This document shows positions 7,701 to 64,000 of a stretch of 64,000 bases of DNA, one piece after another. The notes below the pieces were generated by a model. The model had not been told where the DNA came from. It was given only the letters and a program-made list of their open reading frames with translations, and ran no database searches. The stretch spans positions 248,001 through 312,000 of the forward strand of contig JAPETS010000012.1 in assembly GCA_026023565.1 (NCBI GenBank), in the 5' to 3' direction. The translations under genes were made by a program, and so were the position numbers. Source of the stretch: Cirrosporium novae-zelandiae. Its lineage: Eukaryota. How positions within the stretch are numbered: position 1 is the first letter of the stretch; each line of letters opens with the position of its first letter.

Positions 7701-7752
7701 TATGCGGTGGTCGCACAAGAAGAATGGAGACCAGGGAGTCAAAGTAGGTTGA
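4703..7752 (+). pseudogene. Decayed Clr5-domain protein gene with C-terminal transmembrane segments
   Basis: N-terminus WEEKQPEIVRLYQQEG...[intron 4843-4900]...SQLRSRLKRWNIRK is Clr5-like. The reading frame continues across stops at 5223, 5724, 6455, 6584 (WEW*PL) and 6995, with apparent frameshifts near 6260-6300. Confidence 0.7.
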
Positions 7753-8166
7753 CTGTTGATGCAAACTTGTGCACCGTTGAAGGAATAAGACACATCAAAC
7801 AATACTGTTAATATTGTTATTGCTCTTATTATTACAGCAGACATCCCTCCCTAGTAGAAATCCAAGAAGGATGAGGTTGTGGTTTTGATTTTTGATTTTA
7901 ATATTTCGTAAGAAGGTAATGTTATAGGCTATGGCGCAAAAGGGTGTGTGATTCTTTGATAGTGTGTGTACATTTCATCCTGTCCCAAGATAAATAAATA
8001 GGACTTCCAACTAATTTCAATCAATCCCTTCCATTTCTGTCTAGACATAGGCCATACTTTCTGCCCCCCAAAAACCAATTTTTGTTGCACTCCAAATTTT
8101 AGAATTCCTACCTAGGATAGCGTATGTGTGGAAGTGACAACCCCACAATATTTATACTCCCGTTCT

Positions 8167-39700: not shown

Positions 39701-40056
39701 ATTGCATGAACATCGTTGCCTCTCAGAAATGCTCTCTCGAATTCGTGTAGAGTGATCTTGAGAACTTCTAGGAAGAACCCATTTGATTCGGCTTCACCTT
39801 GCTCAACCTCATTGGCGACGTAACCAATGTATCGCGCAACCAGTTCTGGCGGCGAGGATGGTTCGTCATCCTGAGCAAGCTCATCGGTTGGCTCCGGAAG
39901 TGCGAGAGCAAACGAGTCTCTCAATTGTGAAGCTGTGAAATGATATGCGGTGGGGACGAGGAAAGAATAGTCGAGAGAGCCATGAGTGAGGGTAAGTGGT
40001 CGAAGAGAGGCAGAAGATCTTGGGGTGGAAACACCCGTTTGAGCTTCTGAATACAT
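33729..40056 (-). CDS. FAS1: Fatty acid synthase beta subunit (AT-ER-DH-MPT)
   Basis: YGGQG and GHSQG (AT), AGMTP and [10 protein letters not shown] (ER), SGDYNPIH and THGM (DH), FTGQGSQ, GHSLGEY and GIDVPFHS (MPT); intron 34218-34269. Confidence 0.98.
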
Positions 40057-40712
40057 TATTTAGGTGGGGATGTGAAGCTATTGTGGTTTTGGCAATATTA
40101 GTTTTTGGAAGTACAATTGAAACAACGAAAGATGCCTGAAGATGTAGGGGAGAACGATTGAATGTCAAATTGACTGATGGTTGATTGGGACGTATGATTG
40201 ATGTGTAGTGGTCGATGCTCACATTTTTTTCTCTGGTCTAAGATTTTCGAATTGCTGGCATCTGTGCCTAGTCGTAGACTGAATGAACGACTAGTGTGAG
40301 AGAGATTCGACGAGGAGCAGTAGCACAAACACAGGGAAGAGGGGAGTTTGTGGGATGAGAGAGAAAAATGGATGGAATGGTCAGAAAGATGAGAAGGAAC
40401 TGATGGAGTATTTCAGTTCGACTTCAATCTATATGCTGCCACTGATTCTTAATTTTTTTTGTTTTTGAATTTGTTTTTGTTGGAGTCGCAAAAGGTGAGA
40501 TAAGTTAAATCCCATGTATGCTGGTAATCTTTTGTCGAGGGGCGAGATTGATGAGTTAGGAAGTTTGAGAAAGTTTGATGAGGGAGCTGTCCGATCTGGG
40601 TTTAGCGTTGAGGGTCGAGCTTCCCCCCAACGGAAATGTGTCCGTAAGCAAAAGCCGATTGGGGTTCCAGAAAATTGAAACAATCCCGCATCTCCAAGGG
40701 CCCCTGGTCGCC

Positions 40713-40755
40713 TCGTAAAAACCATCGTAAAAACCATCCGTAAACACTTCGTAAA
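40713..40755. repeat. Short ~12-bp tandem repeat (TCGTAAAAACCA) in the FAS1-FAS2 bidirectional promoter
   Basis: tcgtaaaaacca tcgtaaaaacca tccgtaaacac ttcgtaaa read directly from the sequence. Confidence 0.7.
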
Positions 40756-41801
40756 TTCTGGTGTACACTGTACATGTACAATTGCACCACAATTGTCTCC
40801 GAAAGAAAATATTCAACTAACGTTCAACCCGCGCCCCCACTTATAACCAATGAACAAAAACCATATCAAATGTTTCAAAACAAAATCTTCTCTTCCCTTT
40901 TCTTTTTGAATAAACTCAAGTTTTTGTCGAGCCACGTAGCATTAAAACTGAATTGAGGAGACAAATTACTGGACGGCTATTGATCGAATGATATTGACTA
41001 TGAAAAGTAGACCAAAAGCTAAAATCGTGGGGAAGAGACTAAGGGGAAAAAGCTAAATGGTCATTGGTAAAGGAAGCAAAGAATGAAATTATACCACAGT
41101 AAGGCCACTTTGTACGTCGGCCATTGTGAGGCTATTTGCACCTGTAAACTAAAACTTCCTTTAGGCCCTATGGGATTATGGAACTATGGAAATATGGAAA
41201 CATGACCCAAATTGCATGACATAATCATTCGAATAATTAGCATAACCAAGTAGCGGCATAAAATTACTGTAGTGTCGCAGTGTGTGTGTCTTGCCTTGCC
41301 CTTGACATGCACGGTCGCTCAACATTAACTTCCAACCAACATCCAACCAAACTAAATTCAAACTAACTGATGCCTGCATCTGCAAGCTTTCTTTTCACAG
41401 TAACCACCCCCAACATCTTTTATCAGTAATCTTGACTTCTTTGACGCTTTCATCTCGTCCCAAAACATTTCCCAAAAGGCTTGAGTGAAAGATAAGTCAA
41501 TTGTCTTTCCCCGACGATTATCTACTCATATTTCCCTCTACCCCACCTTCTGTTACACCCTTCGTTCATCATTCGTCTCTCTCCTCTTCAAATTCTCTGC
41601 TCTTCCCCCGAGTTGAGATTTGCAACACCAACTACAAACAACAGATCAGCCTGTCCATTCTAAATCCCTCCCCTCTCAGGCGTTGGTGGATATATCTACT
41701 GTACCTCTCACCTTCTGGTCGCCCTCTTCATAGCAAATCTTATACCCTCATGATTCCTAATTTCTAGTTTTCGCGCCAATCTTTTATTCTCATCACACAC
41801 A

Positions 41802-44800
41802 ATGGGCGATTACAATGCACCTGGAGGCACAACCTCAATGAGACCCGAAGTCGAGCAGGAACTTGCTCATACTCTCCTTATTGAACTTTTGGCATACCAA
41901 TTTGCTTCACCAGTCAGGTGGATTGAAACACAAGATGTCATTCTTGGCCAAAACAACACAGAGCGAATTGTGGAGATAGGTCCTGCAGATACCCTCGGGG
42001 GTATGGCAAGGCGAACAATTGCAAATAAGTACGAAGCATACGATGCAGCTCTATCACTACAAAGACAAATCCTATGCTACAACAAGGATGCAAAAGAAAT
42101 TTACTATGATGTCGATCCTGTTGAGGAGGAGCCGGAAGCGGCCCCCAGTGTCGATTCTGCAGCTCCTAGTGCTGCTCCAGCTTCTGCAGCAGCCCCTGTA
42201 GCTGCTGCACCACCTCCTCCGAGTGCTGGCCCTGCCGCATCGGTTCCAGATGCCCCCGTTCAGGCAGTCGATATAGTTCGGTCATTAGTTGCTCAAAAAC
42301 TAAAGAAATCTCTGGCTGACATTCCATTGGACAAGGCTGTCAAGGATTTAGTTGGAGGTAAGCTATGCGCAATCGTAAAAATTTGTTATAAAGCTGACCA
42401 TCAATTCTCTAGGAAAATCAACTCTTCAAAATGAAATCCTGGGTGATCTTGGGAAGGAATTTGGTTCGACACCTGAAAAATCAGAAGATATTCCTTTGGA
42501 AGAGCTTGGTGCATCGATACAGGCTCTGTTCAATGGCCAACTTGGGAAACAGTCTTCTTCATTGATTGCAAGACTAGTATCTTCCAAAATGCCGGGAGGT
42601 TTCAACATCACTGCTGTGAGAAAGTACCTTGAAACAAGATGGGGTCTTGCATCTGGCCGGCAAGACGGTGTCTTGCTTTTGGCCCTAACGATGGAACCCC
42701 CTGCACGTCTTGGCTCTGAAAATGATGCCAAGGCCTTCTTCGATGATGTTGCTAATAAGTATGCCGCAAGCGCCGGAATCAGTCTCTCGACCACTACAGC
42801 AGCTGGCGAAGGCGCTGCTGTTGGAGGTGGAATGATGATGGATCCTGCTGCCTTGGAAGCATTGACCAAGGATCAGAAAGTTCTGTTCAAACAGCAACTC
42901 GAATTAATTGCCCGATACTTGAAGATGGACCTCCGAGCTGGTGACAAAGCATTTGTTGGTTCCCAGGAGGCACAGAAAGCTTTACAGGCCCAACTTGATC
43001 TTTGGAACGTTGAACATGGCGACTTTTACGCCACAGGTATTGCTCCATCCTTCAACCCCCTCAAGGCCCGAGTATATGATTCTTCCTGGAACTGGGCGCG
43101 TCAAGATGCTCTCAGCATGTACTTTGATATTATCTTTGGCCGTCTAAAGACAGTCGACCGAGAAATTGTCAGTCAGTGTATACGACTTATGAACCGCTCA
43201 AATCCCCTTCTTCTCGATTTCATGCAATATCACATGGACAACTGCCCCACTGAACGTGGAGAAACTTACGAACTAGCCAAGATCCTTGGCCAACAGCTCA
43301 TTGACAACTGCAGAGATGCTTTAGAGGAGGCGCCGGTTTACAAGGACGTTGGTATTCCAATGGGACCCCAAACCACCGTTGATGACAACGGCAACCTTGA
43401 ATACAAGGAAATTCCACGACCTGCAAGGAAACTTGAGAAGTATGTTCGAGAGATGGCCGATGGTGGAAAAATATCCGAGTATGGCAATAGGACTAAGGTC
43501 CAAAATGACCTTAATCGTGTTTTGAAGTTGATCCGAAAGCAACACCGGATGTCAAAAGCCTCAGATATGAAAATCAAGTCCTTGTATGCCGATATCTTCC
43601 GGTCCCTAGCCATGAACGAGAGCCAGATCATTCCTGATGCAAACGGCAAGGGAAATGGTCATACACGCAAGGGTGGGAGGAATGGCTCCCGACAAAACAT
43701 CAAAACCGGAAAGGTCGAAACAATTCCTTTCCTACATCTTAAGCGTAAAGATGACCATGGATGGGAATATAGCAAGAAACTTACCGGTATCTATCTTGAC
43801 AATCTGGAAAATGCCGCGAAAGTTGGTGTTACTTTCCAAGGAAAGAATGCTCTCATGGCAGGTGCTGGTGCTGGGTCCATTGGTGCTGAGGTCCTCAAGG
43901 GCTTGATTAGTGGAGGTGCTAAAGTCGTTGTTACCACGAACAGCTACTCCCGCCAAGTTACAGAGTACTATCAGGCCATGTATGCGCGACATGGTGCTCG
44001 TGGCTCTCAGCTTGTCCTCGTTCCCTTCAACCAAGCTAGTAAACAGGACGTCGAAGCTTTGGTCCAATATATCTATGACGACAAGAATGGTCTTGGCTGG
44101 GATTTGGATTACGTGGTTCCTTTCGCTGCCATTCCAGAGAATGGTCGTGAAATTGATAGCATCGACTCCCGATCTGAGTTAGCTCACCGTATCATGCTTA
44201 CCAACTTGCTGAGACTTCTCGGCTGTGTCAAGTCCGAGAAGCAGGCCCGTGGTTACGAGACCCGTCCAGCTCAAGTTATTCTTCCTCTATCCCCCAACCA
44301 TGGAACTTTCGGCAACGATGGTCTTTATTCTGAGTCTAAGCTGGCTCTGGAAACCCTCTTCAATCGATGGTATTCTGAATCCTGGGGCAACTTCCTTACT
44401 ATCTGTGGTGCGGTCATTGGTTGGACCCGTGGTACTGGTCTAATGAATGCCAATAATGTTGTTGCTGACGGTGTGGAAAGGCATGGCGTCCGAACGTTTT
44501 CTCAACAAGAGATGGCTTTCAATCTTCTCGGACTCATGAGCCCTGCAATTGTCGATCTGTGCCAAGTTGAACCAGTCTTTGCTGACCTCAACGGTGGTAT
44601 GCAATACATCCCAAATCTCAAGGACTTAATGACAGATCTCCGAAAGGATATCATGTCAACAAGCGAAATCCGAAAAGCAGTTGCAAAGGAATCGGCCATC
44701 GAATATAAGATTGTCAACGGCCAAGAAAGCGAGACATTATACAACAAGAAGACTGTCAATCCCAGAGCAAACCTCAAATTCCCCTTCCCCCGAATTCCAG

Positions 44801-47538
44801 ACTGGGAGAAGGATATTGCTCCACTTAATGAGAATCTTAAAGGGATGGTCGATCTCGAAAAGGTTGTCGTGGTTACTGGCTTCGCTGAAGTCGGCCCCTG
44901 GGGTAACTCCCGCACTCGCTGGGAAATGGAAGCCTACGGCAAATTCTCTCTCGAAGGGTGCGTCGAAATGGCGTGGATCATGGGTCTCATCAAGAACCAT
45001 AATGGTCCGCTCAAGGGCGATTCATACTCTGGCTGGGTTGATGTGAAGACCGGCGCACCGGTTGATGACAAAGATGTTAAAGCCAAGTATGAGAAGCATA
45101 TTCTAGAGCATTCTGGTATCCGCTTGATCGAACCAGAGCTTTTCTATGGTTATGATCCCAACAAGAAACAGCTTCTTCAAGAAATCCAGATCGAGGAGGA
45201 CCTTGACCCATTTGAGGCATCGCAAGAAACAGCCGAGGAATTCAAGCGCGAGCATGGAGACAAGGTCGAGATTTTTGAGATTCCAGAATCCGGAGAATAC
45301 ACTGTTCGCATCAAGAAGGGTGCCACTTTGATGATACCGAAAGCAATTCAATTCGACCGACTTGTCGCAGGACAAATTCCTACTGGATGGGATGCTAAGC
45401 AGTATGGCGTGCCAGATGATATTATTGAACAAGTTGATCCAGTTACCTTGTTCGTTCTTGTGTCGGTTGCTGAGTCTCTTCTTTCTGCCGGTATCACGGA
45501 TCCGTATGAATTCTACAAATATGTTCACATCTCTGAAGTTGGAAACTGCATTGGTTCTGGTATCGGTGGTACTCGCGCTCTTCGCGGCATGTATAAAGAT
45601 CGCTATCTTGACAAGCCTCTCCAAAAAGATATCCTTCAAGAATCATTCATCAACACTATGGCTGCTTGGGTAAACATGCTGCTCTTGTCTTCAACTGGCC
45701 CTATCAAGACCCCTGTCGGTGCATGTGCCACATCCGTTCAATCAGTAGATATTGGCTACGAGACAATTGTTGAAGGTAAAGCCAGGATTTGCTTAGTTGG
45801 TGGCTTCGATGATTTCCAGGAAGAGGGTTCATATGAATTCGCCAATATGAAGGCTACAAGCAATGCCGTGGAGGAAATTGCTCATGGCCGTTCACCGGCC
45901 GAAATGTCCCGGCCTACTACCACTACCCGGGCCGGCTTCATGGAATCTCAAGGTGCTGGTGTTCAGGTCATCATGAATGCTAAGCTTGCTCTAGACATGG
46001 GTGTTCCTATTTACGGCATCCTTGGCTACAGCAACACAGCTACCGACAAGATTGGTCGTTCCGTTCCTGCTCCAGGACAGGGTCTTCTTACCACTGCTAA
46101 AGAACAACAGACCAAGTTCCCGTCACCCCTTCTAGACATCAAATACCGCAGACGCCAGCTTGAACTACGCAAGAAGCAAATCAGGCAATGGGAGGAATCT
46201 GAGTTCCTTTTCCTCCAGGAAGAAGTTGCAGCCATGAAATCCCAAGGCACCCCCTTCAACGAGGGAGAGCATATGCAAGAGCGTGCTCGCCACATCCAGC
46301 AAGAAGCTCTTCGACAAGAGAAGGACGCCACGGATAGCCTTGGTAATTCCTTCTGGAAACGAGACCCCTCCATTGCCCCACTTCGTGGAGCTTTAGCTAC
46401 CTGGGGCCTGACAATCGATGATGTGGATGTTGCATCATTCCATGGTACTTCCACCGTTGCCAACGACAAGAATGAATCGGAGGTTATCAACCAGCAACTG
46501 AAGCATCTAGGCCGCACCAAGGGTAACGCTGTTTTAGGTGTTTTCCAGAAGTACCTGACTGGTCATCCAAAGGGTGCTGCTGGCGCTTGGATGCTTAACG
46601 GTGCTCTCCAAGTCCTCAACTCTGGTCTTGTCCCTGGTAATAGAAATGCCGACAATGTCGATAAGGTGCTGGAGAAATTCGATAATATTGTGTACCCAAG
46701 CCGAAGTCTTCAGACCGATGGTATTAAGGCTTTCTCCGTGACTTCCTTTGGTTTTGGCCAGGTCGGTGGTCAAATAATTGGTATTCATCCTAAGTACCTT
46801 TTTGCAACCCTTGATCAAGCACAATTCCAAGCCTACAAGATCAAGGTGGACGCCCGCCAAAAGAAGGCCTATCGCTACTTCCATGATGGTCTTATCAACA
46901 ACCGTCTCTTTCAAGCTAAAGCCCATTCCCCTTACACTGAGGACCAGCAGAACAAGGTCTTCCTTAACCCCAACTCCCGTGTGTCTCTTGACAAGAAGAC
47001 TTCTGAGCTCATTTACCCAAAGTCAACGCCTAAGAAGTCGGTCGACTCAAGGACGGAAAGCACACGCCAAATGGTCGAATCGCTTGCCAAAGCAACGGCA
47101 ACCGAGAACACTAAGATTGGTGTTGACGTTGAGAGTGTGGAAGCCATCAATATTGATAACAGCACCTTCGTCGAAAGAAACTTTACGGACAAGGAGATAG
47201 AGTACTGCCGTCACGCACCGAGCCCACAAGCCTCGTTTGCAGGAAGATGGAGTGCAAAGGAAGCAGTCTTCAAGTCACTAGGTGTCGAGGGCAAGGGTGC
47301 AGGGGCACCATTAAAAGATATTGAGATCACTAATGACGAGAAGGGCGCACCTGTCGTTACTGTAAGTTCCACTTATGATAACCCTTCTATATAGTTTAAG
47401 AGAATTAGTGGCTAAAATTTCAATTAGCTCTACGGTGACGCACTTGCGGCAGCCAAAAAGGCCGGTGTAAAGGGTGTTGATGTCAGCATTTCACACAGTG
47501 ATTCTCAGGCTATCGCCATTGCCGTGTCGAAGTTCTAA
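41802..47538 (+). CDS. FAS2: Fatty acid synthase alpha subunit (ACP-KR-KS-PPT)
   Basis: [42 protein letters not shown] (ACP serine across an intron), GAGAGSIG (KR), [13 protein letters not shown] and TGHPKG (KS), GVDVE...WSAKEA (PPT); last intron 47362-47427. Confidence 0.98.
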
Positions 47539-49047: not shown

Positions 49048-50662
49048 CTACACCACTGAAAGCATCCAGTTTCGCCGTTGCAGGACGTCTTTCCAATCCA
49101 CTCGTCTATTCCCACTACCCAAGGCTCCATTTGCGCGGACGCGCCACAGCTCTTCAAGAACGATTAATGCAGCTTCCACATTATGGAACTGTCGAAATTG
49201 AACCATATCTAGCATCCGCTGCCGGACGACCCGTATCTGGTCTTCTTTCTCCGCCTCCCCGCCAGCCATAAAAAGAGGGAATAGTAATGACGTCTCGGGC
49301 AGACAGCGAGCAGGCATTTCTTGGAACATTTTCACGATTTCGACTACCTGAGCAGACATCTTATTTGCAATGGCGACAGTAAATTGTGGTAGACGTAGCC
49401 GGATGGTGCGGTACAGGTGAATCAAAGCAGCACTCCGATAGGTTTCAGCCAGATATATTAACATTATATCCTCGGATGGGCCACACTTCCAAGACTTTAG
49501 CTCCTGCTCAATTGCACGGCCCCGTTCCGAGTAATTGTTTTTATGTTTATCATCTGGAGGGTGCTGTGCCATGTCAACATTCAGAATACTGATCTCTGAG
49601 ATCAGATACATGATTCGTGATGCTAATCCAAAATAAGAGTCCGCAACGGTTTCATCTCCGAAAGCCCAATATTGTCCGGCTATTAGAAACGGCTTTCTAT
49701 CCTCTACGACGGTCATTAATATGTCATGATAAGCAAAATTCCGAAGCAACCAGCGGCCTTCGTATGTTGTAGCAAAACAACCTAGGTCAAAACATGCAGT
49801 CCCATCGACCGTAGCAGCAGATCGAATTACCTCGTAGGCACCAACGAGATGTTTGAACCATTCAGAGGTATCCCCTGATATACTTTCCATGGCACAATGC
49901 ACCAAGCATGAAGCCAGTTCCATCTCAGTGCTTCGATGAGATGATGCCAGCGAGTCTGACAGAGATTTTAAAGCAGTACATCGATTTTGCAGTGCTATGT
50001 GTTCGTAAGCTTTGATTCGAAGAGCGAGATGGGAGGACGACCAGGCTAAAAGGGCATCGAGGAACAACGGAGACTCCATCGCCATGGGCATAAAAACTAG
50101 AGTGGAAAATTAGCTGAGACTCTCCGGAAAAATTAATATGATGAAATGTCCGCAAACCAGATAAAAAGCAATTGTTTTCTAAAGTGGTTGTTATGAGTGT
50201 CGTAAACGTCTGCGTATAGTAGCGGAGAATAACCCGACGGTCTGCAGCCGTCTGCTCCCCCCCATGTCCGTTTTCGAGCCAGAAGGCCGACAGGTCTGGT
50301 GTTCGAGGTATCAAAACACAAGCATGTGAGGAGGAGGATGGGGACGAGCATGATTGAGCTTGATGAGCAGCAGCATGCACCCGAGACTTTTCGCCAAGTT
50401 CAACGGGCTGGCGAGGATCTTCACGGCGGCATACAAAGTTGAGACGCCTACACTGATCGCAGATGGGGTATAATCCATCACATTTCTTTTTCCTGCAGGG
50501 CTAAGAGTCAGCCGTTTGGGGCGGATATAGATATTGCTGAAGGAAGCGGAGGCCGAACCGCTGACGACATGTCAAGCATCCTGTCCGTTCTCGACGGGTC
50601 CCTGTTCTCTTTCCCAGACGCTTACTTTGGGAAGTTGTGGGGTCAGCAGGGCTGCTGGCCAT
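49048..50662 (-). CDS. Zn(II)2Cys6 transcription factor with Fungal_trans_2-type (Uga3-like) C-terminal domain
   Basis: MASSPADP...RERTGCLTCRQR|intron|KKKCDGLYPICDQCRRLNFVC; then ALLAWSSSHL, WFKHLVGA, FAYHDIL, LLFPLFMAG, LEELW and VDWKDVL. Confidence 0.88.
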
Positions 50663-50842
50663 AGCGAAAGAGTGGATATAGTGGAAATGGGATGATGGCC
50701 TAGTTGAAATGATTTGATAATAGGAATAAAGTCCAAAGGCGTTAATAAAGTTGGTAACGGAAGCCGAAGTAAACGAAATAGCCAGGTAAGAAGGGGTTTC
50801 TGGCTTGACATTGCCAGATTGGAGAGGGAGAATTGGCTTTAC

Positions 50843-50924
50843 CCGAGGTATCTCTACTGGGCTTGGGGGCTACTGTGGGCCAATGTGACTCCTCGGACCC
50901 TGAAATTTTAGGAATCACCCGAGG
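50843..50924. promoter_or_regulatory. Three CCGAGG/CCTCGG hexamers, candidate Zn2Cys6 binding sites in the divergent TF/aminotransferase promoter
   Basis: CCGAGG at 50843, CCTCGG at 50891, CCGAGG at 50919; two occur as ACCCGAGG. Confidence 0.4.
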
Positions 50925-51449
50925 CTAAGGGCCATTGGGGGTAAACTTGGGCTTTACACAGCCAGGCACCAGGCACGATGGGGCTACAAAGTTAACCGCG
51001 ATTAGCGCTATCTTTTGTTACCTTGCTCGGCGTCAACGGCGGCCTCAACCTCTCTCTCGACCCAAAAATCGGAATTATGATCTACTCAAGGTCCAAATGT
51101 CCCAAGGATTTTTCCAACTAGTCAACCATCTGACCAAATGCAAATCATCCTGCAGGCAATCGCTTTCCTGGGAGGCGTCATGGGCGGTGCCAAAAGTCAT
51201 AAGATTTTCACCTACAAGGAATTTGCCTTCTGTGACAATGTCTAAATCAACTCCATTAGCAATGACTCCACCTGCTTCCACTCTCGAGACTCTTGACAAC
51301 AATTGAGGGGAAATTTATAGAGTGGGGCAGAGGCAAGATGGCCCCAAAAAATTTGGTTATAAATAGATCTAGGTGACGGTCTTAAAGAAAATACTGATGT
51401 TTTTTGTCAGAGCATATACATTCTCCTTTTATACTAAACATCAATAACC

Positions 51450-52887
51450 ATGACTCTTGACACCTTTTTTCAAGATTCCCATATCTTCCACCGCTCCCTT
51501 GCTCACAAACCCTTGAATGTCGTCTCTGGTTCTGGGCTAACCCTGACTCTGGATTCCGGAAAACAACTCATCGATGCCACTGGTGGCCCAGCAGTCGCAT
51601 GCTTAGGCCATGGCCGTGCCGATGTTGCCGATGCCGTAAGTCATCAGATCAAGCAACTTGCATACCTGTTTTCAGCGGGTGGATACAGCAATGATGCTAC
51701 TGAAGAGTTGGCATCAATTGTGCTCAAGAACAACCCCGGTGGGCTGAGCAAAGCCATCTTTGTGAACTCGGGCAGTGAAGCTACAGACACGTCAATTAAA
51801 CTTGTGACACAATATTGGCAAGAGAAAGGGGAATATCAACGCCGGAATTTCATTGCAAGGAAACAGAGTTATCATGGGAATACCATTGGAGCTTTATGTG
51901 TTTCTGGGCATGACTCTCGGAGGAACATGTACAAAGACTGGATATCAAATAACGTAACTTTTGTTGATCCTTGCTATGCGTATCGATGCAAACACAACGG
52001 GGAAACAGATGAGAAGTATGTTGCACGTTTAAGGCAGCAATTGGAAGATGAGTTCCAACGTCTTGGTCCTGACACTGTTGCTGCATTTTATGCCGAAACA
52101 ATTGTCGGATCAACACTAGGTTGTCTGCCTGCAGTCAAGGGATATTTCAAAGCAGTACGAGCGGTATGTGATAAGTATGGGGCACTCCTTGTTCTGGATG
52201 AAATTATGTGTGGAATGGGAAAAACAGGAACCATGCATGCTTGGGAACAAGAAGACATTCGAGGCCCTGATATTGAAACGGTTGGGAAAGCTTTGGGCGG
52301 AGGCTTTGTTCCCTTGTCTGGAGTTCTTGTTCATCAGAAGATTTTTGATGTTATAGCAAATGGATCCAAAGGATTAGCTCATGGCCACACCTTCCAGGTA
52401 ATTCTCTACCTGCTACCTTAATCTCTCACTTCCATTACCATGGGGTTGATCTCTGACTTGATCATAGGCTCATCCCGCTGCTTGCGCCGGCGCCTTAGCT
52501 GTACAGAAGATCATTGCACGAGATAACATTTTGGAGAATGTCCGACGTATGGGAGCTCTTCTTGAAAAACTGCTTAAAGAGCATATTGCACCTTTGCCGT
52601 ATGTCGGTAATGTGCGTGGCCGTGGTCTTTTCTGGGGTGTCGAATTTATGAAAGACAAAGAATCCAAGACGCCTTTTCCTCCTAAAGATAGTTTCGGTCA
52701 CAAAGTTAGAGAGGCGGGGCTAGATCTCGGTGTCAATGTTTTGGAACCGATGGGAGCCAGTGGAGCATTAAGTGTCGAGACGGTGATTGTTTGCCCGCCC
52801 TATATTGTTACCGAGAAAGAGCTGGTAAAGATTATAAATCTACTTAAGCAGGCAATCGAGAAAGTGAGCGCTGGTTATCGGGATTAG
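51450..52887 (+). CDS. PLP-dependent class III (omega-amino acid/amine type) aminotransferase
   Basis: DATGGPAVACLGHG, NSGSEA, QSYHGNT, LDEIMCGMGKTG, GKALGGG (PLP lysine), HGHTFQ|intron 52398-52468|AHP, VRGRGLFWGVEF. Confidence 0.93.
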
Positions 52888-53014
52888 GGTCAAGCATGAT
52901 GGCAATTGAGTTTTAGGATGCAAGGTACACAAAGAGCTTGAAGCGCACGAAGCCTATTTAACGTCTCTGTCAGCAGATTAAGTACAGTACTTAGGACTTA
53001 GGTACACAAGAGAG

Positions 53015-53434
53015 AGATAAGATCATTGCCCGTGTTCCAAACCATGTGCTGTAAACTATAGATATGCCTTGGTGCCCCCCTGGTAGCCCCTGATAGCCAG
53101 TCTATGATCAAAGTTGGCGCTTATCTTCAAACGCACGGTTAATTAAATACTTAGACGTAACCGGACCATGATCCGACCACGGCACCTTAAACCGGTTGGA
53201 TCCACTGATAACAATTCCACTGGAATTGAAAGAATTTGGACAAACCTGTTGAGAGTTTAACAGAGAGAGAGTTTGATCCTTTCTTTTTTTTCTTGCGTGC
53301 TTCACACTGTCCTGTCATCTTGCTTTTTTTGGAAGAATCGGAATATATGCTTTACAGACATGACGAAGAGACGTCAAGTTGTTGGAGAGAGTGGACAATA
53401 CACCGGAGCTGCCATGATAAGGATGCTCCGATAA
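53015..53434. promoter_or_regulatory. Cluster of HGATAR sites (AreA/NIT2-type nitrogen regulation) upstream of the permease
   Basis: AGATAA 53015, TGATAG 53091, TTATCT 53121, TGATAA 53206, TGATAA 53415, CGATAA 53429. Confidence 0.5.
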
Positions 53435-53681
53435 GCAAAACACCGCCAATAGCGCCCGGTAGTCAACCTCAATACCGCATGTAAATCGTTGCTAAGAAAC
53501 GACCTTTTACCTTATATTTGCTTTAGCCTCATATTCCTTGCAATGCTTTTCGTATATCGCCTCCTCAGGGCCATATATTCTCTCTCTACCCTCTCTCTCT
53601 TCTCTCTCTATTCACTTGATTTCTCTTGTACGGCTCCTCAACCCTACTGTAGGGACACCCAAGGCCAAAAATCTTGCCATC

Positions 53682-55970
53682 ATGACAGGCATCGCCACCG
53701 GAGTCAGCGAGGCTCCGCTTTCTGAAAAGGTACAGGAGCGAAAGCAGGCAACCTCCGCTATGACCCGCCCTAGCGAGTCTTCAAGTGATTCCGACAATGA
53801 AGTTGAGCGAGGAATAGCAAAGCCCGTGTACGACCACACACGTCGGAAATTGAAGCCAAGACACATTCAGCTAATTGGTATCGCCGGAACCATCGGAACA
53901 GCGTATGTCTCCCGATTTTCTCTGGGACGAGGGGAAAAGATTACCTAGCTAAAGCCTCCTGTGGACTAGACTCTTTGTGAATATTGGGAAAGGATTACTT
54001 AATGGGGGCCCTGGAAGCTTGTTTATAGCATTTACATTATGGTCAGTATCATTTATTATCTTGCCACGATATAAAACTAAAAGTTCGAAATGCCAAAACT
54101 TCAAGTCATCTTTCATTTATAGTTAGAGATGCCTGAATGATGAAGATACCAGAAATAGCCATGGCCTGAAGCGAGTTTATGCCACCTCTAATTTTATAAT
54201 GTATACTACGTCACCAAAGTTGGCTTGAGTTGCAGCAACCCAAAGTTCAAAAGTACTAATTTGAGATGAGGACTAACTATGATGTATCCAACTCACCAAG
54301 CTCCATCCATTGCCTTTGAGGTCTTACAAATCAAGTCTAGAGTCGAAATTCTGACATTCTTAAAAACTAGGTGTCCGGTCATTTTACTGGTTACATTCTG
54401 TAGGAGATCCCCTATTCTTACACTCCAAGCTATGCAGCTAGATTTTTTTTCCTAATGCTAATAGGCAACTTAGGTATGTCAGAGATGGTCACCTATTTAC
54501 CCATCTCTTCGCCTTTTATTCGGTTCGCGGATCGTTATGTGGATGAAGCTTTTGGCGTCGCTGCTGGATATAACTTCTTTCTATTCCAGGCCTCTCTAGG
54601 TATGTACTCTGTGCTATGGAACTTCAAACCCTATCTTCCCTAGGGTAAGCAGTGCTAATGACTATAAGTTCCTTATGAGATTACGGTCTGCAATACTATC
54701 ATCCACTACTGGACTGATAAAATCCCAGTCGTTGCCGTTGTTGCCATCTTTCTAGTTTTATACGCGTTCGTACCCCTCTTTGCATTACCCCTAAAGTCCT
54801 TCCTAATAATTTCCTAGTCTTCTCAACTTCTTCGCTGTCTCCTACTACGGCGAATCTGAATTCTGGCTCTCTATTGGTAAAGTCATTCTCATCACAGGCT
54901 TAATTCTTTATACCTTTATTACAATGCTTGGTGGTAATCCCGAGCATGACCGTTTTGGCTTTCGATACTGGCAGAATCCGGGAGCTTTTGCTGAGTACAT
55001 CGCCACAGGCGACGAAGGCAGGTTTCTCGGCTTTGTCGCCTGTCTAGTGCAAGCAGCTTTCACAATTGCAGGGCCTGAGTACGTTAGCATGACGGCCGGT
55101 GAGGCTGAAAATCCGAGAGAGGTACTACCAAAGGCGTATCATTCGATTTTTTATCGCTTGACTGCGTTCTTTGTTTTGGGCTCCCTTGCCGTTGGCATCA
55201 ACGTCCCTTATAATGATGCCAATTTGGAAGCAGCTTATGCCAATTCTGCTCCCGGAGCCGCAGCATCTCCTTATGTCCGCGCAATGACTCGTTTGCACAT
55301 CAAAGTTCTACCTGATATCGTAAATGCCATTATTCTCACATCCGCTTTTAGTGCGGGGAACAGTACGCTCTTCACCTCGACACGTTCTCTCTACGGCCTG
55401 GCACTTGAAGGCAAAGCTCCCCGTATTTTGACCAAGTGCACCCGCTCAGGAGTTCCTTATCTCTGTGTTTCGGTCGTCTTTGCCATCAGCATGCTTGCAT
55501 TCCTCCAGGTCTCAAATTCTTCTGCCGTCGTCCTAAATTGGTTCGTGAGCCTGGTGACAGCGTCACAACTAATAAACTTTTGCGTCATCACATTCACATA
55601 TACGCGCTTCTACGCAGCATGCAAAGCCCAAGGCATCTCCCGCGACTCCCTCCCTTACAAAGGAAAATTCCAGCCATACTCAGCATGGATAGCGTTTTGG
55701 GCCTGCTTTGTCATGACGTTGGTAAACGGGTGGACTGTTTTCACCAAGGGAAACTGGGGTGTTGCAGACTTTCTCTTTGACTATATGATGGTAGGAGTAT
55801 TCCCGGTTTTGTTTATTGGATGGAAGGTCGTTAAGAAAACAAAATGGAAGAAGCCAGAAGAAGTTGATCTGGTCAGCGGGGTGGACGAGATTGAGGAGTA
55901 TACGAGAAATTACGTGCCAGACCCAAAAAGAAGCAAAGCTGGGTTGATTTTGGATAAGGTTTTTGGATAA
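53682..55970 (+). CDS. Amino acid permease, APC/YAT family (Agp2-like), multi-exon
   Basis: RKLKPRHIQLIGIAGTIGTA, EMVTYLPISSPF, YGESEFW, GFRYWQNPGAF, GPEYVSMTAGEAENPR, SAFSAGN and LPYKGKFQPY motifs. Confidence 0.93.
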
Positions 55971-56329
55971 ATTCACGGGTATGGCATAACGTAGCAATCT
56001 AAGAGGTCTTGTGTAGTCGGTCATATATTGTTGATATTAGAATGCAAAGAGCTCAGAGACCTTTTACAAGTTAATATTGTCTTATATAAATTTCCAATTG
56101 ATCCTAAGTGTTGACTTGGATATCCCCCATTCTCACAGAAACACCAGACACTCATTCTTCCCCCGCATGAAATATCGAACACAAATTCCAATTAGTGACT
56201 ATTCTATCACCATCCAAAACTTACACTTTCAAAAATCCTTTGACCTCTCTCACAATTTCTAACATGGCAAACTTCATGACCTAGAATCGAGTTTGTAATG
56301 AAAATTTCGCCAAACAACCAATAATAAGC

Positions 56330-56441
56330 GGGCGTATGGTCTAGGGGTATGATATTCCCTTCGCATTCATAGTTATTTGCTATTATATAGCTTGAAGGTG
56401 TTGATTGGGAATGGTCCTGGGTTCAATTCCCAGTGCGTCCA
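56330..56441 (+). tRNA. tRNA-Ala(CGC) with a 40-nt intron (56366-56405)
   Basis: Acceptor GGGCGTA/TGCGTCC-A with the G3:U70 alanine identity pair, anticodon stem TTCCC/GGGAA with loop TT-CGC-A|T, T-arm CTGGG-TTCAATT-CCCAG, and downstream T-runs as a Pol III terminator; mature length 72 nt. Confidence 0.93.
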
Positions 56442-56736
56442 AATTTTACTTTTTGGTTTTTTGGAGGATGGGATAGGAAAGTGGAGGGGTTGGTTCTCGT
56501 CGTTTTCGTGGTGAGTTGAATGGTGTGGATAGGAAGCCCCGGAAGGTTCGGAAGGTACAAGTCATTCCTATCGCGGAGGACCTGTTTCCGTGCAGGTGCT
56601 GTGCTCTGAAATACTCAGAAGGGCTCACGCGTACACTGCTTATAAATAGCTTAATAACCATAGGCTATTCCTAAAGGAGCGTATGCTGAAGCATGCACGG
56701 CCGCTACTTAATTCACAACAATATCACACGAAATTT

Positions 56737-58012
56737 TTATTTCTCTGCAATTTCAGGCAATAGACTCGCGCCACAATGAATCAAAGCCATTGCGAGATTC
56801 ACATGGCTATTATGGAGGGCACAGGATAGCGGAGTCTGGCCGGAAATTGATCGAGCATCTATATTTGCCCCATGACTGACCAGAAGCATCGATGCAGCGT
56901 CGTGTCCATGTTCCGCTGCATGGTGTAAAGAAGTAGCTCCTTCTCGATCACACAAGTTGATGGATGCCCCTGCGTTCAACAGAGCTTCAATTATAGGAAC
57001 ATTTCCGCTCATTGAAGCATTATGGAGGGCCGAATAACCGTGAAGTGTGTCAAGATGGTTAATATCTAAACCTATATGCAGCAAGGATTGCAGTTTGGGA
57101 AGATTCTCCATGACTGCAGCTCTAGGTAGAGCATCTGGGCTTTTGAAGAGCCGTGGTAACCGACGACTAGTGGATGTTTTGGTATCTAGTTGAGAATCGG
57201 GGAATACGTCGAATTCACTATCCCGAATTTCAACGCTCTTGATGTCGTCCTTTCGATGCTGCTGCTTCTGCAGGGGTCCCTTGCTTTCCCCCTGTTTGGT
57301 CAGGGTTACTCCGGTCGGGAGTACCCTAACCTGCTGTGTGGGGAATAGTGAATCCGTGAGGTAATCACCACTTGACGTGAATGTCTCCTGCTTTGAAATA
57401 TCTTTAATCCAATATCTCGGAGGAGGATGTTGCAGTGCCTCGTCTTTAATTTGATAGGAAGGACACAAAATACTGGAGGCGGTACCAGGATAAGGACTGC
57501 GCCGAAAATGGCTGGCCTCTAGATTGTGTTCAGCAGAATGAATACTTGGTTGGAAGCAGCTAGCACTAACATTAGCTTCATATTTTTCTTGCTTCGCTGC
57601 GACAGGTGATGACTTACGTCTGCATGCTTATTTTAACTGCAGTCAATAGTGTGACGTTAGATACTAGGCGCAACCTGAGCGAATCTATATCCTGAACACC
57701 CCATCGAAAACGATCCCATAGCCGTGGTGTCTTCGTCCCCAGCGACGAAGATGTTGACAGGATTCTAAATATCTCATCCAAAATTCCTTTACAACTTCTA
57801 CCGACGCTGGTAAGTCCGGAGACCTGTTCTGTCGTTAACTTGTCTTTACCGGCCGCGAGCGTCTCACTCAAATCCTGGAGAAGTTGGCAAAGAGAATATA
57901 ATTCAGCAGAAAGATTTCTAAACTGTGTCGGCGAGTCCTTGCAAGTTTGATAGACATTCCATGCAAAAGTGGGCACGGTGATAAGGTCTCCTAAACTGAA
58001 ACCGAAACTCAT
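56737..58012 (-). CDS. HeLo-like/fungal STAND N-terminal-type helical domain + ankyrin repeat protein (two exons, no NTPase domain)
   Basis: MSFGFSLGDLI...VYQTCKDSPTQFRNLSAEL...LWDRFRWG...LRLRL N-terminus. An intron at ~57561-57617 joins in frame to a linker and ankyrin repeats (GYSALHNA, GATSLHHAA, GQTPLSCA). Confidence 0.8.
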
Positions 58013-58389
58013 CCTGACAAGATATACTTGCTGTGGATTATTAACTATCAGATAAGGATTACTCAGTAACCTTTGATAAAAGCCTACTGTATGTAATTAT
58101 TATATGCTTTCCCATCGCCCTCTAATCCTCCATGGCCCGTTGTTGGCAATTCTCTATTGGCTTCTCCTACCCCACTTCGCCTGCAGGGATATGGTGTATA
58201 AGGCAGCGCCATCTGCCTCATCAACCTGCCGTCTCTCTAGCCTTGTCAATTCCTTCCAGCCTTGCCACATTGTCTGCAGGAAAGAGATAAATAGGCAGAG
58301 GTGTACGGCTCGCCAATGCTGATTTAGGTTTCACATGTTGCTATGAGTAAGATATTGCATTCACCACCGGCTCTTATATAAGCTCTGCG

Positions 58390-60775
58390 ATGGCTACAAC
58401 ACTACTTAACGCGATCGAACCTCACGAATGTCACGATACCAAGGAACTGTCTTCTTTGGAAACACTGATATGTCGTCTTCGAGCGATCTCTACTGGACTG
58501 GAACGGATTCGCAGGCTCACAAAGTGTTGCCCCGATATGATACTTGCGTTGAAGAATGAGATCTCTGACCTTACACTGGTTCTCCCAGAAATCGAAGGAA
58601 TTGACAGAGATCTGGAACGAGGCAATACATGTCAATATTTGAGTATAACTAATATTCTGTTTCGTTTTCACACAAAAATCGAACAGTTCGAAACCGCTGT
58701 TAAGGAGTGCCTTGATACCTGTTCTACGACGTCTCATCGCCTGGCTCTAAATCGTATGAAGAAGCGAAGATTCTCTCGCTTATCGGATTTCCAAGGTGAC
58801 CTTCGGTCTATGCGCAATGATCTCAGTTCGGCCTTATCCGTTGCTTCTTCGTAAGTTTAGTGCTATCCATGAGCCTACCAAAATAATGCTGTTACAGGTC
58901 CGGTATTATAAGACTTGAACTTGCGCTTCTCGACATCACAAGAAACCCCAGAGCCGTTTCGGTCGCCCGGGAAAGAGTCAGTATTGATGAGATCAATACC
59001 GTTCTTCATAGAACTCGGGAGATGAAACAAGAAGGCTTCGCTGGTAGCGGGTTTTTTGAAACAGGACATAACCGTGCTCTAGAAACATCAAATACCGCAG
59101 CTGACCAGCAAATCGTATCATTGATGAGCAGTATGACGGGTCATAGTTTTAACATAGCCCAGACAGATGGGAAGAATGCGACTATCTCGCACATTGGCGT
59201 GACTGTTCGTCGGTACAGTCCAGGGTCATGTCGATCATGGTGTAGCTGCGTTTGCCACCAGAAATGTCGCTTCAATACGCCTCAAATTTTGAGAGATATT
59301 TTCGGGACCCTGTTCCTGGGATATTCTGGAGTCCCATTCGGACTACTGAAATGTTCTAAGGCTTCATGTAAACGGAATACGACCTTTAGCTTTCAGGCGA
59401 CGTATTATTTTCCTTCTTGGTATTTTTCACATTCAGTCTCTCTTGGACTAATTAATAATCTCTCTGGAACATCCCTTTCTATAACCATGAGACCTATTGT
59501 TCGAAGGTCAGAACTCTACATATTCGCCGCCCAGGGGAATGTTATGGCAGTGAGGAGACTACTTTCAAACCGGCAGGCTCACCCAAACGAGATTCATGAG
59601 AGGTTTGGAAATACGGCTCTTCATGTAAGATCTCAGTGATTCAATGATATCGTAAGTCACTGAAGCGACAGCTAGTACGCAATTGAGTTTGGGCATCCAG
59701 ATATCTGTGAAGCTCTCTTGACAGAAGGGGCAGATCCATATATTGAAAACAGTGTTGGAAGGTAAGAGTTTTTAGATTTTTTGGTGCTCAGAAGCTAAAA
59801 AATTTCATCCATAGCTCGGCCGTCGATAAGGCGTGGGCTCTCATTTTGACCAGCCATAATAATTCATCCCTCGCAAGTCGACTCAGAAGCCTCTTCGGTG
59901 ATGGGGATGTAGTAGAGGAGATGGGTTTCTCAATTCTTCACAAAGCTCTACTTGATCTCATTCCTCTAAGTTTCCAGTCGCTGCTTGAGGAGCCTAGTAC
60001 AGATGTTAATGCTGTTGACTCCGGAAATCGGACAGTACTTTCATGGGCTTCTCAGCGAGGGGACCTGGATGCTATTAGGCAATTGCTAGAGCATGATGCG
60101 GACCCTAATATTTGTTCTAAGCTACATGTCACCCCATTGCATTTTGCGTTGCGGGGCAACAATCCCCAGTGCGTCGAGATGCTCATTAGAGGTGGCGCTT
60201 CAATGTCCGCTCGGGACTGGGGAAACTGGCCACCAACTCATACTGCAGCCATGAACCAAGATGACCCCGCCTACATGGTTCCGCTTTTAAAGGCAGGCGC
60301 TGATGTTAACGAGTTGCTGACTAATGAGAGGTATGGGAAATCTGCGCTCCACAGAGCAGCCGTTGGAAATCGCCCCCGCATGGCCTCTTTTCTTCTCGAC
60401 AATCATGCATTCATTGACCGGCAAAGTACTGGAGGCGTCACGCCATTGATCGAAGGAGCAGACTTTCTAAGCATTGACGTTGTGAAAATTTTGCTCCAGC
60501 GCGGAGCTGATTATACGATCCGGGACCATGTAGGACAATCAATCCTACATCGAATAGCAACAAAAGCGGACCTTTCTCTCCTGCAAGCCTTCGCCGATAT
60601 CGAACCTATTGGTCTTAATATGGATGATCGCGATGCTCTCGGTTACAGTGCAATGGACATTCTCGGTGGGAATCGTGATGTTCCAATCACCCTAGAATTC
60701 CGATCTGCTTTTGAAATATTCGCCTCACAGCTCGAGGCCCGTAATACTAAGATTCCCGACAATTTCGGGGATTGA
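58390..60775 (+). CDS. HeLo-like N-terminal domain + Cys/His motif + ankyrin repeat protein (multi-exon)
   Basis: GLERIRRL...PDMILALKNEISDLTLVL helical N-terminus; CRSWCSCVCH...CSKASC; about 8 ankyrin repeats (GNTALH, RTVLSWA, VTPLHFA, KSALHRA, VTPLIEG, QSILHRI); introns at ~58851-58897, 59625-59675 and 59762-59814. Confidence 0.8.
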
Positions 60776-60929
60776 GGGCACCGGATTGTGTTAAAAACAT
60801 ATATTCTCAGCTGCATTATCAGTATAACGGCAATGAATGATGACACTCATGGGCCTTGGAACGTTTCTGGCGATTTCATTAATGATACAAATGATTTTTT
60901 CATGTTTATCGCCTTGAGGGGATGATGCT

Positions 60930-62056
60930 TCAACAATAACCCATTTCCGTTTGTCGCAATCTGATGTAATCCTGAAGCTGTTTATCCGTTTCATCTCCTT
61001 CTACCCCGCATCCGCAGTAATAAAAGGCTTCCCGTAGAGCTATCCTATCGAACTCTGCATCTTTTGGTAGTACGCCAGTAGGGTTGTTGTGTACCCTACC
61101 CAGTTGTGTCAGTTCAAGCAATAGCAGGGTATACGCTTCAGATTAACTTACTTCGCAAATTGCAGGTCAATAAGTACAACAAACCAATTATTATTGTGTG
61201 TCATATCACTGTTTTGATTGGCTTGCTGAGAGCATATGAGAACTTGGTCACTTTTGATGCTCCCATGAGAAACGTCCAACGAATGTAAAGTCTCCAGCGC
61301 CAGTGAAGCGCTTTTCCGAAGAACGTCAATGGATTCAGCTCTTATTCTGGAATCCATATACTTGAACACCGGAAATGGCAGGTACTCCATAATCATGAAC
61401 AAGCCGGTAGAAACGATAGCACCATCGTCTTGATACAAGCCGAAGACATATGGAAGTATTTCACCTTGAGCCTCTCTCGCAGCTGCGTAAGCGTGCACTT
61501 CGTTGAAAAACCGAGGGGTATTTTCATAGCCTGAACGCCGAGGGTCACGGGTGATGTCTAATGTCGAATTAAATTTTGCAATAACCATATAACCTTCATT
61601 GTTTTCCGTCTCATTCGGTCGTTTGCCGGCATAACTTTTCCTGTCATGGTCCAGTCGAATAAGCCCAACATTACCACTATTCGAAATCTCAGAGGCTCCG
61701 TCCACTATTGTACCCTTGAGCAACGAGTAGTCCTGAATAGGGGGGATTGGACGTTTCACGCCGTTCTGGGGACGCTTAGGGTGCTCCCGCCGGGCGCTGC
61801 TCCTACGCTGGCGACATTCTGGCAAAGCCTCTCTTGGTAAATCTCCTTGGTCGTTTGTGGCAAGGTTATTCAGACCGCCTTTGTCGTTTTCATAAAACCA
61901 AGCGCAGTCTTGCGTTGATACCTGTCGCATAGCGTCTGCGGAATGAAGATTAAGCTTTGAATCGCAGTATATTGACGTTGCATCAATCCGTCTCAAACTG
62001 ATTTCTCTCCCGCTAGGGAACAGTGCTCCCTTCTCATAGTATCCGATTCGAGGCAT
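60930..62056 (-). CDS. Divergent protein-kinase-like protein, predicted pseudokinase (two exons)
   Basis: VIAKF (beta3 Lys), FFNEVHAY (alphaC Glu), QGEILPYVFGLY, MIMEYL hinge, LETLHSLDVSHGSIKSDQV catalytic loop, VLIDLQFA; an intron at ~61097-61151 joins the 60930-61121 ORF frame. Confidence 0.7.
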
Positions 62057-62663
62057 GATTTGCTGCTTCCTGTCGTCCGATGTTGATATCCTAATAAAAG
62101 CCTCTCTCTCTACTAGTACACAAAAGCATAGAATCAAAGACCGCAGAAGGAAGGTGACCTTGTGCTTATTGCAAAAGAGGGCGCAGTTTTGGGGTGAAAG
62201 GGGGGGGGGTCATCCTAAGGTTTCTCTGTTGCTTAGATTATATTTTTTACGATGCAGCCTCATCCAGTTCACTGCGGCGGCACGCCATCCCCCCCCCTAC
62301 AGAGATAATAGGATGTTGTAACTTGCCCCACCTTGGAGAGGTTGTTGGCTCCTCGACCTTATCTGCTGTGCATTGGGCACCCTTACAGGATCTCGGTTGT
62401 ACAGCCGCATTACGATAGGTGATTCTCTTCTTAATCGATGAATAATTAATCCAAGAGGAGGGAGGATCTTTGATTCCTGTTAATTAGCGAACCGACCACC
62501 CTATGGGGGTTGAACGGATGCGGCTCAGACGACGTCACGATAACCCAGTCAGCCAGACGGACAAATGAGAACCCTGGGGTTCTTTAATAGACTATCACAT
62601 GAAAATTAATTTCCAGTTTTGGGAAACTTCGTCTTGGTCTTCGCTAACTTGGTCGCCCTCAGT

Positions 62664-64000
62664 TCAGAAAAGCAATGATTGGTTCATGAGTTCCTTCACC
62701 ACCCTCTGCGTTCCTTCTCCCACTTTATACCCTCCCACATTGGTCATACTCATATACGTCTCTGCCCGCCCCCCACCAATAACAGCCCACGCTGTCACAT
62801 AATTATATTTATTACTCCCGACATGTGTCAGCGTATATCTGGACCCATCTGGCGACCTATTAGGAGACCTCCAAGCGCCAGGGGTGTAAGGCTCCTCCCC
62901 CTCAGCCTTGAGATAAGGCATATGGAGGAAACGAAAATCTTCGGGCGAAAGGCCTAAGGGGGTCTCCTTTCCGCACGCGCCATCCACATGCACCCTTAAA
63001 AACTTATTGTACTGCTCCATGGGACAGTGGACCCTCCCCGCGGAATTAATGGCGGGAGGGCTATCCCGATGCCGTAGGTCCAGCTTTGTCATGGGGAGGG
63101 CAGGCGCGCCCGCAACGGGGTTCCGCTGGTGCGGCCACGGGTTCTCGATCGAGAACCGGCTGCTTTCGTCGTTGGGCCCGAAGCCGCAGTTGCCCATGTC
63201 CAGGGGTGCGAAAAGTCGGCTTCGGATGACAGCCTCCCACGTGCTGTTCGTGATGACATCGATGATCGCTCCCGCGATCACAAAGTTGATGTTGTCGTAT
63301 GCGAATGTTCCCAGCTGGCCTGCTGGCGGCTTGCTCATCGCTCGTTCTGTTATCAGCCACCGCCCTTCCCGCTCAGTGAGCAAGGGGTCATATAAGCTTT
63401 CGTAGAATGGAGCATCCTGGACGTAGTCCCCGACGAGGCCAGACCGATGCGCCGTCAGCATCTTCAGTGTCGTGTTCCGATGCGCATTATCCATTCCAGC
63501 TGAAAGCTCCGGCAGCGCCTGCGCCAGCGTAGTATTCCAAGACAGAACCCCATCCTTAGCTAGCAGTGCCACCAGCGTCGCCGTCATGGCCTTGGTGTTT
63601 GACCCAAGGTGGAACTGGTCTGATTCTCGGATTGTGGGAGGGGAGCCATTTCGTCTTAGGCCTGTCACGCCACAGGCGAAGCTTCCGTTCTTGCTGTGTG
63701 CGGCTGCGAGGCATGGGAAGTTGAGTTGCTTTCGGAGAGCTTCGAGGCGGGATGGGTTTACCGTTTGATGAGGGCGAGGAATTATTGAGAGGGGGATCGA
63801 GAGTCTTTTTTGGGGCGGAGGGTGGAGGGGGGGTTGGTTAGTGCATGCCTGAGAGAGTGGGGGGCGACTGGCTACTTGGGGGGATGGGCGGTAGTAATGG
63901 TGGTAATGGTAATAGCAGCAGTAACAGTAGTAGCATACCTCCAGCCCACCAACTCCCCGAGATTAACCGCACAAAAAACAACTGCGCAAAAGCAAACAAA
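62664..64000 (-). CDS. Beta-lactamase/AmpC-family serine hydrolase, 5' end outside window
   Basis: FHLGSNTKAMT (SxxK), LTAHRSGL, FAYDNINF (YxN), LFAPLDM, THVGS. A probable intron at ~63804-63938 (GTATGC...CACTAAC...AAG) joins an open hydrophobic exon that runs off the window. Confidence 0.88.

Follow-up and report, generated by a model that had tools for sequence, protein, structure and literature searches.

Positions 56,737 to 62,056 of a 64,000-nucleotide stretch of Cirrosporium novae-zelandiae DNA (contig JAPETS010000012.1, positions 248,001 to 312,000; hereafter the window) raise the question of whether three closely spaced genes, named A, B and C here, belong together. A and B are transcribed head-to-head, and both join a helical N-terminal domain (the head) to C-terminal ankyrin repeats; C encodes a kinase-like protein. 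An earlier note on this locus had proposed a sensor/executor/pseudokinase module for nonself recognition. According to sequence comparison, A and B are a real conserved gene pair that was kept across a deep split. The evidence suggests an undescribed two-protein control unit, of which the membership of gene C is unproven.

Three Fonsecaea and two Cladophialophora species have orthologues of B, with 49-50% identity overall. Among 1,320 candidates, the single relative of the A head that was retrieved is F. pedrosoi Z517_12276, and it adjoins the B orthologue of that species, Z517_12275. The orthologues of F. nubica (AYO20_01521/01522) and of F. monophora (AYO21_08261/08262) also carry adjacent tags for A and B and have consecutive accessions. 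A and B are adjacent in 3/3 Fonsecaea species and in three of the five genomes with B; the linkage in other genomes that the earlier module would imply is, in part, borne out, namely for A and B in one lineage. The split is deep, as the host lineage branches early within the Eurotiomycetes according to the accessible text of a phylogenomic study (PMC12238968); NCBI taxonomy places the species in Xylobotryomycetes. A, B and C are similarly distant from their nearest relatives (45-59% identity in the folded cores, except the B head with ~30%), and for C this distance is compatible with a history shared with A and B, although it does not show one. A metagenome scan with gene B yielded 346 pattern matches, none of which was confirmed.

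Within the genome, at least 29 loci encode a helical head, and A and B form the sole pair within 10 kb. The probability of any head-to-head pair arising by chance is 0.02-0.03, assuming 7,000-11,000 genes, a figure that is weak by itself, as the locus was chosen after the fact. The spacing described earlier (~377 bp between A and B, and a kinase-like gene ~155 bp away) is accurate, with 377 bp measured for the first and 154 bp between the stops of B and C. The gap between A and B may act as a bidirectional promoter.

Table 1. Coordinates of the three genes and their parts, numbered from the first nucleotide of the window
Feature	Position	Strand	Description
Gene A	56737..58012	minus	407 aa; four-helix-bundle head, variable linker, 3-4 ankyrin repeats
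Gene A exons	58012-57618, 57565-56737	minus	splice model
A head (aa 1-131)	57620..58012	minus	HeLo-like/SesA-type, MLKL-like four-helix bundle; begins MSFGFSLGD
A ankyrin repeats (aa 276-398)	56767..57135	minus	Ank_4 E 3.8e-21
Divergent intergenic region A-B	58013..58389	none	377 bp, measured between ATGs
Gene B	58390..60775	plus	744 aa; divergent helical head, linker, Cys-rich domain, ~10 ankyrin repeats
Gene B exons	58390-58850, 58898-59624, 59676-59761, 59815-60775	plus	model translates open
B head (aa 1-153)	58390..58848	plus	putative distant HeLo-like bundle without hydrophobic first helix
B Cys-rich domain (aa 249-355)	59181..59501	plus	CxxxCxCxCH...CxxxxC, then beta strands; no Pfam family
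B ankyrin repeats (aa 356-712)	59502..60676	plus	span introns 2 and 3; Ank_2 E 4.4e-38; ankyrin fold matches
Gene C	60930..62056	minus	356 aa; predicted small fungal Kdo/APH-like pseudokinase; module membership unproven
Gene C exons	62056-61152, 61095-60930	minus	agrees with public protein P0004

The introns of all three genes are canonical, and the single one of A is 52 nt long, with GT-AG borders and a CTAAT branch. The public protein P0001 (744 aa) shows 100% identity over the gene B exon-2 query, and its ends agree with the model; the gene C intron is backed by the relative P0016, which reads through the same junction. P0001 and P0004, which are identical to the gene B and gene C queries, are C. 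novae-zelandiae proteins according to their source and have consecutive locus tags. The model of gene A rests on the sequence and on the Fonsecaea orthologue, because the public protein collection yielded no spliced A product; two unspliced A variants are absent from it too. Contigs from one of three runs cover the stretch unbroken and without differences, although this run may itself be the source, and those from the other two do not reach the genes. An intron-containing tRNA-Ala(CGC) gene (56330-56441, plus strand) lies 295 bp from the stop of A; it was detected by the intron mode of ARAGORN and by Rfam, and was missed by the default tRNA tool. The GC content at third codon positions (GC3) of A, B and C is 0.43-0.45, inside the range of the neighbours, which the dinucleotide indices likewise match. 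Codon GC and dinucleotide indices give no sign of recent horizontal transfer or of decay by repeat-induced point mutation at the locus, and no terminal repeats stand out.

The family assignment of the A head is solid by sequence and suggestive by fold. The head matches PF17111 (PigL_N in Pfam, named HeLo-like or Helo_like_N in PMC9815663) at E 4.4e-5 and SesA at E 0.0065, both under the cut-off. An independent profile, assembled from 13 further heads of the same genome, gives it 57 bits, whereas 300 shuffles reach 4.6 at most and the reversed sequence 3.6. Its homologues in the genome include two NACHT-ankyrin NOD-like receptors (NLRs) with the same MSFG-x-x-x-GD head type. With the predicted model (predicted local distance difference test, pLDDT, 72.7), a VIA fold search ranked the MLKL N-terminal domain first of 48,161 chains (Z 11.8, root-mean-square deviation 2.2, 113 aligned residues); NRG1.1 CC-R and two further MLKL entries rank lower. 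Among the Foldseek matches listed, the MLKL template-modelling (TM) scores are the highest, at 0.63.

The head of B is a more distant case. No Pfam head family matched any of the six B proteins (B and its five orthologues). In hhalign, profile comparison gave 3.3% as long as the alignment still held full-length rows, and 93.8% after cleaning. Hidden Markov model scores are 13-16 bits, above 300/300 shuffles; as the reversed B head of the window also scores 14.1, helix periodicity explains part of this signal. The Atlas score of 0.89 is a lead only, and a PDB sequence search with the head alignment was dominated by ankyrins. The best support for homology comes from the single B paralogue in the genome (contig C85), which has a B-like architecture and a PF17111 match (E 7e-4), and to whose head the B head aligns at E 4e-8. 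The two genes, formerly described as unrelated-looking, appear instead to be remotely related in their heads. The HeLo-like nature proposed for both N-termini holds for A, by sequence profile and with MLKL at the top of the fold search but tied; for B, the hhalign result stands beside the missing Pfam match and the high reversed control.

The heads also differ in their first helix. Its hydropathy is 0.04-0.64 in B and three orthologues, with a polar, charged start, versus 1.59 in the C85 paralogue. In HeLo/HELL proteins, the first helix is described as important for membrane targeting in the accessible text of PMC12881547. Because such a hydrophobic helix is absent from B, the B head is probably disarmed. 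Two killers are unlikely, since the B head shows neither a Pfam head match nor this helix: of the sensor/executor module proposed before, the adjacency of A and B in Fonsecaea speaks in favor and the first helix of B against.

The architecture noted earlier in both genes, a helical head, a linker and ankyrins, is correct as far as heads and ankyrins are concerned: ankyrin families lie far above the cut-off in both, and the evidence for the head is stronger in A. The supposed linker of B, however, holds a conserved Cys-rich domain. Its Cys and His residues are invariant in the orthologues and the paralogue, its identity to 5/5 orthologues is 65-68%, and it is probably zinc-binding; the locus also points to an unnamed domain. 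In the predicted model of whole B, the Cys-rich domain has a pLDDT under 50, the head and Cys-rich domain being at about 50-58 or below, and fold searches with whole B returned ankyrin proteins only. When prokaryotes were scanned with the Cys-rich domain, one of 38 candidates matched, over only 24 residues, and was rejected as a chance match.

The earlier statement that A and B have no Walker A motif and no NACHT or NB-ARC domain is confirmed. A Pfam scan gave no match to these families in the A exons, B or the B orthologues, whereas NLR exons of the same genome, used as a control, do match NPHP3_N/NACHT. No Walker A motif was found in proteins A, B and C, the sole six-frame match falling outside the coding frames. 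The analogy with plant sensor/helper NLRs, drawn in the same place, fails on their defining feature, the nucleotide-binding (NB) domain.

The folded domains of A and B are conserved and the linkers drift. Between A and its orthologue P0005, identity is 45% in the head, 51% in the ankyrins and 18% in the linker. Among the Fonsecaea siblings (three species, one strain per species), the ankyrins are 97-100% identical (99-100% for those of A), versus 91-97% for the linkers. Across the deep split, the A ankyrins keep 8/18 surface and 33/48 framework positions, and the B ankyrins share 25/42 surface and 81/112 framework positions with the F. pedrosoi orthologue, the position classes following what we take to be the ankyrin consensus. 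No tandem DNA repeats were found in A or B; an NLR of the same genome, by contrast, contains 6.4 copies of 99 bp at 86%. A fixed binding partner appears to account for this conservation better than polymorphic nonself sensing would. Because the ankyrin repeats are conserved and not hypervariable, a polymorphic allorecognition sensor is argued against, and the nonself-recognition role in the earlier note is weakened, the repeats being free of internal duplication and nearly identical among siblings.

The reading put forward here, as a tentative one, is that of an executioner and its regulator, in which B would hold the bundle of A inactive and let go of it once B or its target is perturbed; C would be a possible switch in trans. 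A and B would form a two-protein unit without a nucleoside triphosphatase (NTPase), probably co-expressed from the shared promoter. The MLKL/HeLo-like four-helix bundle of A may still act on membranes, and B, with its disarmed bundle, Cys-rich domain and long conserved ankyrin array, could bind A as its restraint or guard. If B, or a conserved target that it watches, were disturbed, the A bundle would be free to oligomerise, possibly leading to cell death or a stress response. The pseudokinase C may serve as a switch or decoy in trans, so that A and C would resemble an MLKL divided between two genes. Clusters of two or three genes often make up death pathways in fungi, according to the accessible text of PMC12881547. 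With one intact and one presumably disarmed head, the pair is a small system open to direct testing of whether A kills, and whether B or C stop it.

Several observations weigh against an executioner-regulator pair. Unrelated bundles tie with MLKL in the fold search with the A head (Z 11.5 and 11.3 vs. 11.8), all three values being below the level of 13 under which the tool advises caution for helical bundles, and Foldseek returned nothing at E <= 0.001 with the same model. The first helix of A is only moderately hydrophobic (0.92, versus 0.76-2.31 for other heads). Head-ankyrin genes also occur without a partner in this genome, namely the B paralogue on C85 and a gene on C38, and for PigL, the one protein with this architecture that has a name, the accessible text of PMC8241920 shows no function. 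As to the linkage, the three Fonsecaea species are siblings and count as one independent comparison, in which the locus tags do not show orientation. An A orthologue was not retrieved for two of the five genomes with B, both Cladophialophora, in a search that also missed the A of the window itself. Finally, the only close relatives of gene C are unnamed records without genomic context.

Gene C itself encodes a predicted small fungal Kdo/APH-like pseudokinase. It is kinase-like by an Atlas feature score of 0.97 with a TM-score of 0.53, and matches Pkinase only at E 0.02. With the register of the catalytic loop set by alignment to PAK kinases, what we take to be the catalytic Asp is replaced by Ser266, the loop Asn by Gln271 and DFG by DLQ (motifs HGS-x-KSDQ and DLQ), whereas K161 and E186, presumably the kinase Lys and the alpha-C Glu, are kept. 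The Ser-for-Asp and Gln-for-Asn changes occur in 6/6 aligned rows, which represent two independent lineages, and the pseudokinase proposed before is well founded in this respect. Among 1.84 billion representatives, four scored E <= 0.001: the protein itself, one close relative at 49% and two weak kinase matches. The one at 49%, a cluster of five members, shares the changes of catalytic residues. No paralogue of C was found in the genome, and its N-terminus gave no score on the head profile. Scans with gene C confirmed none of 77 pattern matches in metagenomes and none of 35 in viruses, and the locus tags predicted for C in Fonsecaea are absent from the full texts searched and from the supplements of PMC5358931 and PMC5640708.

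It is distinctly unlikely that A, B and C make up a conserved three-gene death switch, free of NTPase and amyloid, in which an executioner A and a free pseudokinase C, together a split MLKL, would be held by the disarmed paralogous B with its new Cys-rich domain. If this is true, fungi would have a third means of controlling HeLo-like domains, and the many orphan head-ankyrin genes would gain a role. In the reviews consulted, control of these domains comes from a fused NLR or from amyloid templating, or else they sit in kinase/pseudokinase fusions.

On contig C106, a NACHT-type NLR with a PigL_N head and a small fungal kinase gene (Pkinase E 6.5e-7) stand tail-to-tail (931-2101, plus strand, and 2820-5649, minus strand), an orientation like that of B and C.

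The pair could also be a non-lethal, co-regulated one of adaptors, whose bundles only dimerise and whose ankyrins bind fixed partners in ordinary signalling or development. We consider this somewhat unlikely. The conserved adjacency and the conserved ankyrin surfaces fit it equally well, the hydrophobic helix is absent from the B head and modest in that of A, and the structural match of the A head is not unique to MLKL. However, the A head groups with NLR effector heads of the same genome, and the distribution of A and B is narrow and patchy, a pattern to be expected of defence genes more than of core adaptors.

Passive linkage is unlikely. The genes would then be independent, C a bystander, and the locus an old inherited block or a cassette moved beside a tRNA gene, with two unremarkable genes of an architecture common in fungi. 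The linkage has a single independent comparison, with both lineages within Eurotiomycetes; the paralogues stand alone, and a tRNA-Ala gene is indeed close to the stop of A. Against this, A and B have in common a rare head type, of which they are the sole close pair, and the neighbour-like GC3 and the lack of outstanding terminal repeats give no sign of recent transfer.

Closest to the earlier note is a polymorphic, het-like allorecognition pair of sensor and executor under balancing selection, which we regard as very unlikely. The head-to-head layout, the NLR-type head of A and ankyrins like those of fungal NLR sensors would suit it, but the tandem repeats of the NLR in this genome have no counterpart in A or B, the ankyrins are less variable among the sibling species than the linkers, and no PP-type motif was found. 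That A and B are decaying remnants of NACHT-ankyrin NLRs after loss of the NTPase is hardly credible: although A resembles an NLR with its centre removed and its head homologues include full NLRs, the frames are open, lengths and architecture are equal in the orthologues, and most folded domains keep 45-70% identity, so that an origin by NACHT loss is possible and decay is not indicated.

Compared with known systems, the executioner-regulator pair proposed here shares with fungal NACHT-ankyrin NLRs bearing HeLo-like or SesA heads both the head type and the ankyrin C-terminus, and with the rare head-to-head NLR pairs the divergent layout. Such pairs account for 13/225 two-gene clusters in Sordariales in the accessible text of PMC12258605. 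Unlike those proteins, A and B have no NACHT or NB-ARC domain, hence no ATP switch, and their repeats are neither internally duplicated nor hypervariable; they are not an NLR pair, because the NB domain is absent. The likeness to MLKL and to the fungal HeLo/HELL-pseudokinase fusions described in PMC12881547, as far as its text is accessible, lies in the superposition of the A head on the MLKL bundle and in the pseudokinase next door. Here, different genes encode the bundle and the pseudokinase, the Kdo/APH-like fold of C is small and carries no fused head, and the locus lacks an active kinase. An MLKL-type fusion was rejected, as C has no head and the Pfam scan found no kinase domain in A or B.

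The amyloid-linked clusters NWD2/HET-S and PNT1/HELLP (PMC5485727, accessible text) are likewise small and contain a HeLo-like domain. In contrast, no adjacent NLR was found in positions 50000-64000 of the window or in the next 9 kb, none of the ten genome matches to PF14479 (HeLo sensu stricto) lies at the locus, a regular expression for PP-type motifs found none in A or B, and both proteins end in ankyrins instead of a prion-forming tail. An amyloid-signalling cluster was rejected on the absence of the NLR and of the PP-type motif.

The ankyrin protein PigL of Monascus, with a PF17111-type helical head joined to ankyrin repeats, resembles A and B in architecture and would itself lack an NTPase. 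According to the accessible text of PMC8241920, one gene alone encodes it and it plays no part in making pigment, whereas A and B are a conserved pair in which one head is without the hydrophobic helix. No paper describing such a pair was found in a full-text search that included few subscription papers and no bioRxiv supplements; the solo head-ankyrin architecture is known, and the literature found gives no function for NTPase-less proteins of this type.

Other head-containing genes were observed in the genome. On contig C119, a HeLo protein with a pseudokinase-like C-terminal half (838-2649, minus strand) is head-to-head with a kinase-ankyrin fusion with intact motifs (3315-7523, plus strand). 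A second HeLo and pseudokinase-like gene lies ~145 kb away on C23, the contig of the window (7267-9174, plus strand), with no kinase-ankyrin partner evident within 10 kb. A gene on contig C56 (5029-6717, minus strand) apparently encodes two helical PigL_N-like domains, one per end. Contigs C35 and C47 have identical HeLo matches at a nearly equal coordinate, about 340,430, probably an assembly duplicate; this protein ends in a short N/G/Q-rich tail, presumably resembling a HET-s-type amyloid region. Elsewhere in the window, a beta-lactamase-family gene (62664-63962, minus strand; E 3.3e-27) has a GC3 of 0.63, above all intact neighbours measured, and positions 34258-47394 contain a divergently arranged pair of large genes, which we take to encode the beta and alpha subunits of fatty acid synthase.

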